NCBI GenBank assembly: GCA_964479535.1 | Contig: CAYZMM010000001.1 | Coordinates: 327,902-391,901 of the forward strand | Direction of reading: 5' to 3' | DNA length: 64,000 nt | DNA from: an uncultured Thermodesulfobacteriota bacterium | GTDB taxonomy: Bacteria > Desulfobacterota > DSWW01 | In this document: one piece after another, positions 39,179 to 40,144 of the stretch | Position numbering within the stretch: position 1 is the stretch's first letter | How the letters are laid out: every line of letters begins with the position of its first letter | Program-made: the position numbers and the translations under genes | The notes under the pieces: model-generated | Told to the model about the DNA's origin: nothing | What the model saw: only the letters and a program-made list of their open reading frames with translations | Databases searched by the model: none

Positions 39179-40144
39179 CTATACATCGGCCGCGGCGGCC
39201 GTCCGAATCATGATGCCGCGATACCCTTCCTTCTTCTCGAGCTTTCCCTTCATCTCCGTGGCCTTGTCCGCATCCGGGAAGGGGCCGACAAAGACCTTGT
39301 AATAGGTCTTGCGGGGCTTCCCATGGATCCACTCCTTCTGAAAGGAGGCATACCCCTTCTGCCTCAGCGCTTGCACGACGCGTTCCGCCCTTTGCACCTC
39401 GCTGAAGGTTGCGATCTGGAGGACTCTCTCCTTTGACGCGACGTTCGTTCCGCTCTTCGCGACCTTCCTTCTGTCCGCCCTGGAGGCCTGCGCCTTGCGG
39501 CTCTTGGAAGCTGTCCCGGACCTGCTCGATTGCCACGCCTGCTCGATCCGCTCCGCCGACGCCGGATCCTCGCCCCGCAGCCTCGCGGTGATCCGACCCG
39601 CCTTCGCCGGGCTCAGGGCACCGAGGATCTGGCCCGCCTTCCGGACGTTCACGCGAAGGAGCAGCCACGAGCCGAGAGCGTCGTCCATCGCCTCGAGCCT
39701 CTGGGCGGCATTCTCCGGCTCCATCGCATCGTAGATCTTGACGAGTCGCTTCTCCTGCTCGTCCTCGTGCTCGATAATTTCTTTATGTTCTTTCTCAACA
39801 GTTAATCGCAACTTATTCAGATCATTAATATTTTGTCTTATCTCACGGCTCAGAATCTGCAGGCGCCTTTCCTTCTCCTCCAGGGCGGTCGCTTTCCGCT
39901 GGAGACGCCCCTCCTCTTCCTGGATCCGCTTGATCAACCCGCCGACGCGAAGCTCGCACTCCGCATCATAGGCTTGGGGAGCGGCCCGGGCAAAAGCCGC
40001 GTCCGGGGACACGGATTCGGCTAGACAGGCTCCTCCCTCTCCCTCCCGCAACAGGGAAACCAGCACCCACCCCTTCAGGATGAGGAAGACGAAGAGCAGA
40101 ATCAGGAATCCCCTAAACGTCCCTCTTTCTCTGAGCAAATTCAT
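39179..40144 (-). CDS. YlxF/MotE-like (MgtE_N-type) flagellar protein with C-terminal SPOR (peptidoglycan-binding) domain
   Basis: Position after fliJ as B. subtilis ylxF. N-terminal TM + coiled-coil KRIQEEEGRLQRKATALEEKERRLQ. C-terminus VLQIATFSEVQRAERVVQALRQKGYASFQKEWIHGKPRKTYYKVFVGPFPDADKATEMKGKL fits SPOR. Confidence 0.55.
   Translation of the reverse strand: MNLLRERGTFRGFLILLFVFLILKGWVLVSLLREGEGGACLAESVSPDAAFARAAPQAYDAECELRVGGLIKRIQEEEGRLQRKATALEEKERRLQILSREIRQNINDLNKLRLTVEKEHKEIIEHEDEQEKRLVKIYDAMEPENAAQRLEAMDDALGSWLLLRVNVRKAGQILGALSPAKAGRITARLRGEDPASAERIEQAWQSSRSGTASKSRKAQASRADRRKVAKSGTNVASKERVLQIATFSEVQRAERVVQALRQKGYASFQKEWIHGKPRKTYYKVFVGPFPDADKATEMKGKLEKKEGYRGIMIRTAAAADV

Follow-up and report, generated by a model that had tools for sequence, protein, structure and literature searches.

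A flagellar E-ring family protein with a C-terminal SPOR domain in an uncultured Thermodesulfobacteriota bacterium

A 64,000-nucleotide stretch of DNA from an uncultured Thermodesulfobacteriota bacterium (assembly GCA_964479535.1, contig CAYZMM010000001.1, positions 327,902 to 391,901; here called the window) contains a very large flagellar gene cluster, in which the gene that follows fliJ encodes a 321-residue protein with the N-terminal half of a flagellar E-ring protein and a C-terminal SPOR domain (Table 1). We consider it probable, at roughly 0.6, that the protein is an E-ring protein, an orthologue of FlgY, FlbB, MotE and YlxF that has acquired a C-terminal cell-wall anchor, and that the ring it builds is tied to both the membrane and the wall.

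The E-ring is located between the MS- and P-rings, as in Caulobacter basal bodies. FlgY, FlbB, MotE and YlxF constitute one family, COG3334, whose members start with a signal peptide or transmembrane (TM) helix, continue as a coiled coil and end in an ARM-like MgtE_N head. Dimers of the family build the E-ring, with the heads as a hub around the MS-ring and the coiled coils as its spokes, and fliJ or fliK is usually the neighbouring gene (PMC13023049, PMC11870540). The partner proteins of E-ring homologues are rich in TPR repeats, and the E-ring was assigned to FlgY, FlbB and MotE only in 2025-2026, with its function left open as a bearing, a scaffold or a chaperone (PMC13023049).

The C-terminus is a SPOR domain on a flexible tether

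Pfam SPOR (PF05036) matched residues 241 to 313 of the protein with an E value of 7e-13; the score of 49.1 bits, where the gathering cutoff is 21, lies well outside what chance would give, and the matched region includes the motif YYKVFVGPF at residues 281 to 289. A preliminary description of the stretch had proposed a SPOR segment at this end of the protein, and the profile hidden Markov model (HMM) match bears that proposal out. To the same protein a monomer model was fitted with AlphaFold2 from a 32-sequence alignment (mean predicted local distance difference test [pLDDT], 79), which placed helices at residues 7 to 34 (TM) and 56 to 140, four short helices between residues 143 and 192, and a beta-alpha-beta-beta-alpha-beta fold at residues 240 to 315 with a pLDDT of about 90. 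The strands of that fold span residues 240 to 247, 267 to 274, 279 to 289 and 312 to 315, and its helices span residues 250 to 262 and 292 to 305. Foldseek comparison of the SPOR model with the PDB gave a template-modelling score of 0.81 against the SPOR domain of RlpA (6i05; root mean square deviation [rmsd] of 1.9 A over 76 residues) and of 0.73 against CwlC (1x60); the RlpA complex with denuded glycan (6i09) and the SPOR domain of DedD (6ztg) were matched as well. Moreover, a profile of eight fused SPOR domains searched against the PDB found CwlC (E 0.0058), DedD (E 0.017), FtsN and RlpA.

Mutation of Q251, S254, W283, R285 or I313 in FtsN lowers septal localisation, and these effects are explained by contacts in the RlpA-glycan complex (PMC6895207). 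The five FtsN residues aligned to Q243, T246, Y281, K283 and M312-I313 of the target protein and are thus either kept or conservatively replaced; the FtsN sequence used for this alignment reproduces the residue numbers of PMC6895207. Q243 was invariant in 27/27 SPOR-bearing sequences, position 281 was tyrosine or phenylalanine, and position 283 was lysine or arginine in 26/28.

Between head and SPOR domain lies a tether, modelled as one helix at residues 194 to 211 followed by about 26 disordered residues (pLDDT below 50 at residues 211 to 236). Conservation was computed domain by domain among 27 fused sequences. Mean pairwise identity was 0.84 for the head, 0.69 for the SPOR domain, 0.60 for the coiled coil and 0.45 for the linker. 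The ratio of nonsynonymous to synonymous substitution rates (dN/dS), measured against the homologous loci L001 and L003, respectively, was 0.005 and 0.074 for the head, 0.074 and 0.090 for the SPOR domain, undefined and 0.139 for the coiled coil, and 0.464 and 0.453 for the linker; because dS was saturated, with values above 1 or, in the coiled coil, no defined value, dN/dS is meaningful only as a way to rank the domains. The length of the tether also varied among fused homologues. Since the SPOR domain is under purifying selection while the linker is variable in both sequence and length, the SPOR domain behaves as a domain that is folded, under selection and flexibly tethered. We conclude that the SPOR domain is genuine and looks functional, and from its sequence and model we predict that it binds glycan.

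One fused relative, P0041 (361 amino acids [aa]), has three tandem 20-aa repeats, DKTPPASPAPTLSQASVAGS, in its tether, which roughly double the length of the linker. The repeats are consistent with a flexible spacer of freely variable length.

The N-terminal half is that of an E-ring family member

The N-terminus carries a predicted membrane anchor. The top-scoring 19-residue hydropathy windows begin at residues 11 to 15, Arg5, Arg7 and Arg11 precede the hydrophobic stretch, and within the clade motif K24 and G25 are invariant and W26 is nearly so. Two cysteines near the membrane are near-invariant (C40 in 29/32 and C63 in 30/32 sequences), and unfused relatives within the clade have both; C40 and C63 may form a disulfide. 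The MotE protein of S. meliloti dimerises via a cysteine. The arginines before the TM helix, the acidic segment after it and the two conserved cysteines together predict that everything after residue 32, the SPOR domain included, is periplasmic.

Following the acidic segment, the single long helix at residues 56 to 140 was modelled with a pLDDT of 93 to 97, and its heptad a and d positions were hydrophobic at 12/19 and 12/18 in two in-phase registers, as opposed to 2 to 4 in the other registers. The hydropathy peak, the helices at residues 7 to 34 and 56 to 140 and the heptad pattern agree with the preliminary description, which had given the gene after fliJ an N-terminal TM segment and a coiled coil of the YlxF type. 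Its further assignment to the MgtE_N family holds for the family and not for the single sequence: Pfam MgtE_N aligned to the target alone below threshold (residues 131 to 189, E 0.0098, 16.8 bits against a cutoff of 25.9), but matched 40/41 relatives of the N-terminal half with a best E value of 1.6e-8. In Foldseek comparisons with the PDB, the modelled head superposed on FliG (rmsd of 1.3 to 1.5 A over 97 columns, and 1.3 A for 4fhr_B) and on the N domain of MgtE (2zy9; rmsd of 1.8 A over 69 columns).

The best NCBIfam match of the target was collar_FlbB (NF047368), at residues 13 to 156 with an E value of 1.5e-8, and the same model matched 39/41 relatives of the N-terminal half with a best E value of 1.9e-13. 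The score of 34.7 bits on the target, set against an equivalog cutoff of 110, makes the protein a homologue and not an equivalog of FlbB. Homologues of the target carry the JGI name "MotE (MotC chaperone)". A phmmer search of the PDB with the whole protein gave no useful match, and no FlgY or FlbB chain was found there by sequence. The target thus has an N-terminal TM anchor, a long coiled-coil helix, an MgtE_N head and a gene that adjoins fliJ and fliK; it departs from the family in that the head is not the C-terminal end, a trait that is family-typical and not mechanistically defining. We conclude that the N-terminal half belongs to the FlgY/FlbB/MotE/YlxF E-ring family.

The fusion recurs within one clade

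An exhaustive phmmer search over 1.84 billion representatives returned 1694 matches, the best 150 of which were re-scored with local profiles of each half. Among these 150, 127 had the N-terminal half only (median length, 187 aa), 18 had the SPOR domain only and five had both, such that the fusion was found in 5/132 of the nearest N-half representative clusters, all in one clade. Word-indexed searches of NCBI, JGI, ENA and Logan data recovered the fusion in about 40 clusters at the 90% identity level, 36 to 100% identical to the target. Nearly all of them were 60 to 100% identical to it and had a precomputed PF05036 match; the distant fused members were P0037 (48%) and P0188 (36%), and the representative search added the fused P0040 (36%) and P0041 (38%) and the truncated P0049. 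Its recurrence across independent data sets excludes an assembly artefact as the source of the fusion.

Gene order around the fusion is conserved in the contexts examined. The order fliI-fliJ-fusion-fliK-flgD-flgE is kept in the loci L002 and L003, and the slot between fliJ and fliK is kept in L002, L003, L004 and L005. The nearest unfused orthologues (P0042 to P0047 and P0189) are 37 to 48% identical over the N-terminal half and have the same LKGW motif and cysteines, and one of them, P0044, occupies the identical slot of L004 and L005. In 40 unfused relatives the chain stops 1 to 12 residues (median, 5) past the head, whereas the target continues for 131 residues. A SPOR remnant or split gene was looked for downstream of the unfused orthologue in L004, and none was present.

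In a neighbour-joining tree of the N-terminal half, fused and unfused proteins interleave within one clade with a star-like topology. In a corresponding tree of SPOR domains, the fused domains intermix with DedD-like proteins of about 200 aa that consist of a TM segment, a linker and a SPOR domain (44 to 48% identity), and such proteins are, from these sequences, the likely donor type. With interleaved, star-like trees, one fusion followed by losses and repeated fusions are indistinguishable.

One further relative, P0036 (238 aa, 73% identical, on a 502-kb contig), departs from the target beyond about residue 225, and its C-terminus has no SPOR domain. A frameshift or an error of sequencing seems a better explanation for it than a natural unfused form.

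A proposed doubly anchored E-ring

By analogy with the Borrelia FlbB protein, dimers of the target would be held in the inner membrane by their N-termini at the periphery; from there the coiled coils would run inward as spokes to a hub of heads that encircles the MS-ring where it lies in the periplasm. The tether of about 46 residues, whose disordered part of about 26 residues has a contour length of about 9 nm in addition to the 18-residue helix, would let each SPOR domain reach the peptidoglycan directly above the head, where it would bind glycan strands that lack stem peptides. Given some tens of copies in each motor, the ring would be held at both the inner membrane and the wall, a double anchor, and might serve the rotating MS-ring as a static bearing or scaffold, which agrees with a role already proposed for the E-ring.

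The target resembles FlbB of Borrelia burgdorferi and FlgY, MotE and YlxF in its TM helix, long coiled coil, MgtE_N head and position at fliJ and fliK (PMC13023049, PMC11750108), but known members of that group are 172 to 264 aa long (table in PMC13023049) and end a few residues past the head, whereas the target adds a 46-aa tether and the SPOR domain. A septum-type peptidoglycan-binding module within the E-ring and spoke network also has a precedent: PflA of Campylobacter and Helicobacter and MotK of Cereibacter sphaeroides are TPR spoke partners of the E-ring with peptidoglycan-binding AMIN domains (PMC13023049, PMC11870540). In those cases the module is AMIN and sits on the TPR partner, whereas the module of the target is SPOR and would be carried by the E-ring protein itself.

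MotB and PomB, and likewise the periplasmic scaffolds of the MotY and FlgT type, are membrane-anchored or motor-bound proteins that use a linker and a peptidoglycan-binding domain to reach the wall and so keep a non-rotating motor part in place. Their domains are OmpA-like, bind peptide-bearing peptidoglycan and have no homology with the target, and what MotB and PomB anchor is the torque generator and not, as proposed here, a ring around the MS-ring. DedD, FtsN, DamX, RlpA and CwlC share with the target the SPOR fold and the conserved glycan-contact residues; they act in cell division or sporulation, and none of them has a coiled coil and head of the FlgY type or lies in a flagellar operon.

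A candidate partner is encoded at the head of the same cluster, where the gene for a 662-aa TPR-rich protein lies directly upstream of those for a histidine kinase, a sigma54 response regulator and FlgB. Pfam found no AMIN domain in the 662-aa protein. It is a candidate E-ring partner of the PflA, MotC, MotK or FlcB type; by comparison with PflA and MotK, a TPR protein without an AMIN match would fit a scenario in which the anchor moved onto the ring protein.

Several points weigh against an E-ring pinned to the wall by SPOR domains. SPOR domains prefer denuded glycans, which are known as enriched at division septa. At the same locus, the closest unfused orthologues (46% identity) apparently function with no SPOR domain, which makes the anchor an accessory. 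That the protein dimerises and forms a ring, and that the tether is long enough, is inferred from other species and from arithmetic on contour lengths. Neither MotA nor MotB was seen in the window. Finally, the carriers of the fusion found here are all uncultured metagenome-assembled genomes or metagenome contigs, which is a practical limit as well.

If the protein is an E-ring protein as proposed, the fusion bears directly on the question of E-ring function: a ring protein that is both membrane anchored and wall binding would argue for a static, envelope-fixed structure, and the SPOR anchor would be a simple, portable thing to add or remove. SPOR would become a third kind of peptidoglycan-binding module in the flagellar motor toolkit, beside OmpA-like and AMIN domains, and the uses of SPOR domains would extend past division and sporulation. 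The term SPOR occurs zero times in the E-ring papers PMC13023049 and PMC11870540, and no link between a SPOR domain and the flagellar motor was found in the literature searched, the coverage of which was incomplete, such that an earlier mention elsewhere is possible.

Alternative explanations

One alternative is that the SPOR domain is a landmark or timing device, which targets the E-ring protein to the denuded glycans of the septum, the future new pole, and there seeds or retains basal bodies in step with the cell cycle alongside FlhF and FlhG. Consistent with targeting, those SPOR domains that have been characterised direct proteins to the peptidoglycan of the septum (PMC6895207), and the presence in the window of flhF and of a MinD/ParA-type flhG suggests polar flagellation. 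Polar placement is, however, already explained by FlhF and FlhG, nothing indicates that denuded glycans persist at the poles, and close relatives without SPOR retain the same flagellar locus. Moreover, the position of the SPOR domain after a hub-forming head fits a role in the assembled motor as well as it fits targeting. We regard a landmark of this kind as unlikely.

A bolder form of the same idea makes the E-ring protein a reader of peptidoglycan, such that a SPOR domain on amidase-processed septal glycans would couple both the place and the time of motor nucleation to division, or such that the motor would itself produce a collar of denuded glycan around the hole for the rod and then hold on to it. 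We would place it slightly lower still. Were it true, the chemical state of the wall would be a cue for flagellar assembly and the E-ring would be a bearing that is fixed to the wall and does not rotate.

A third alternative, developed from a suggestion in the preliminary description, starts from FlgJ: if FlgJ lacks a muramidase domain, the SPOR domain might read peptidoglycan at the assembly site and position a separate lytic enzyme, for example one like RlpA, to open the hole for the rod. The premise was upheld, as the 126-aa FlgJ-like protein of the window had Rod-binding as its single Pfam match; Pfam found no glycosidase domain (glucosaminidase or muramidase) in it, and it is not a dual-domain FlgJ. 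RlpA, itself a lytic transglycosylase, does use a SPOR domain on denuded glycans (PMC6895207). The step from premise to recruitment found no specific support, however. When 44 proteins of the window were scanned with Pfam, none matched a lytic transglycosylase, amidase or muramidase family, and 3/44 matched no family. The low-complexity tether has no evident enzyme-interaction motif. Single-domain FlgJ proteins are reportedly usual outside the beta- and gamma-proteobacteria (Nambu and colleagues, 2006; SltF, PleA); if so, a single-domain FlgJ is common and does not single out this lineage. Furthermore, SPOR domains bind glycan and are not known as recruiters of enzymes (PMC6895207). Recruitment of a lytic enzyme is therefore improbable, to about the same degree as the glycan-reading motor above, and a structural wall anchor is the more economical explanation.

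It is very unlikely that the protein is not flagellar at all, either as an assembly or gene-calling chimera of flgY and a dedD-like neighbour or as a division protein of the DedD/FtsN type inside a flagellar cluster: the JGI label "cell division septation protein DedD" on two fragments, the DedD-like context of the nearest stand-alone SPOR domains and weak NCBIfam matches to RlpA, FtsN and DedD over the C-terminus speak for it, but the FtsN and DedD scores are far under their cutoffs (14.1 against 107.65 bits and 10.9 against 150, respectively), the N-terminal half is clearly FlbB/MotE-like, the start of the gene overlaps fliJ, both halves are under purifying selection, and the fusion is a single uninterrupted open reading frame (ORF) in about 40 clusters from four sources.

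The gene and its flagellar cluster

The first 32 nucleotides (nt) of the target ORF overlap the 3' end of fliJ, and a Shine-Dalgarno-like AAGGTGA lies 4 to 5 nt 5' of the ATG. Codon-position GC is gene-like, with a third-position value of 0.76, in keeping with neighbouring genes. A gene for a CheY-like receiver separates the target from fliK and breaks a flagellar operon whose genes otherwise point in one direction; its stop codon and that of the target are 7 nt apart. It is found at the same place in L003 and is absent in L002 and L004. Nearly all of the surrounding cluster is encoded on the minus strand. Genes for the L- and P-rings are present, which indicates a diderm envelope, where a periplasmic SPOR domain can meet peptidoglycan.

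Table 1. Features of the SPOR-bearing protein and of the surrounding flagellar cluster, in window coordinates
Feature	Residues	Position	Strand	Basis and remarks
Target ORF	321 aa + stop	39179-40144	minus	ATG start; E-ring family protein with C-terminal SPOR domain
TM anchor	12-32	40049-40111	minus	Hydropathy and AlphaFold2; predicted N-in/C-out; clade motif LKGW
Acidic disordered juxtamembrane segment	33-63	39956-40048	minus	pLDDT <50 for aa 35-55
Coiled-coil "spoke" helix	64-128	39761-39955	minus	AlphaFold2, heptads, collar_FlbB alignment
ARM-like MgtE_N "head"	129-192	39569-39760	minus	Family-level HMMs and Foldseek; most conserved part
Tether	193-238	39431-39568	minus	Composition (K/R/S/A-rich, net +7), pLDDT; poorly conserved
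SPOR domain	239-316	39197-39430	minus	Pfam, AlphaFold2, Foldseek
fliJ, directly upstream of target		40113-40538	minus	Pfam FliJ E 5.5e-12; TIGR02473 E 3.2e-13
CheY-like receiver, single domain, convergent with target		38783-39172	plus	Pfam Response_reg E 1.2e-23
fliK (hook-length control), next same-strand flagellar gene downstream of target		37159-38553	minus	Pfam Flg_hook E 4.7e-11
FlgJ-like protein	126 aa	18050-18430	minus	Pfam Rod-binding E 9.4e-6, 26.5 bits against 25.1
flgI (P-ring) and flgH (L-ring)		18446-20327	minus	Pfam FlgI E 1.3e-143; FlgH E 1.8e-56
TPR-rich protein, cluster head	662 aa	48783-50771	minus	Several TPR Pfam families
Head of cluster: TPR protein, histidine kinase, sigma54 response regulator				Pfam
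fliF, fliG, fliH, fliI, fliJ, target, fliK, flgD, flgE, fliL, fliM, fliP				Pfam; in that order; fliF at 43431-44954
flhA, flhF, flhG, fliA, flgA, flgH, flgI, flgJ				Pfam
flgM, flgN, csrA, fliW, fliD				Pfam
flgB, flgC, fliE, fliQ, fliR, flhB, flgF, flgG, flgK, flgL, flagellin gene				Read from sequence only

Other observations in the window

Between fliA and flgF lie two further minus-strand genes. One (23145-24113) encodes 322 aa that match the FliK-like Flg_hook family weakly (E 0.0035) and may be a second protein of the hook-length type, and the other (24187-24588) encodes a 133-aa protein with a weak DUF2802 match. In the fliP ORF (31693-32763, minus strand), about 159 residues precede the FliP domain (Pfam match at residues 160 to 352), and the long N-terminus reflects either a start codon called too far upstream or a fusion of FliO with FliP. 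An island of the flagellin-glycosylation type (36-10532) adjoins fliD and the flagellin gene and contains three Glyco_trans_1_2/DUF3880 proteins (one with a Maf N-terminal domain), a family-9 glycosyltransferase and a glycosyltransferase-methyltransferase-TPR fusion. A PilZ protein is encoded at 1066-1566 and a GGDEF cyclase at 50893-51978. Flanking the flagellar region, positions 53625-60684 encode a 1525-aa activase fusion of the BadF/BcrA type (BcrAD_BadFG and DUF2229) and a gene resembling the D-component of 2-hydroxyglutaryl-CoA dehydratase, which together indicate an anaerobic lifestyle of the organism.

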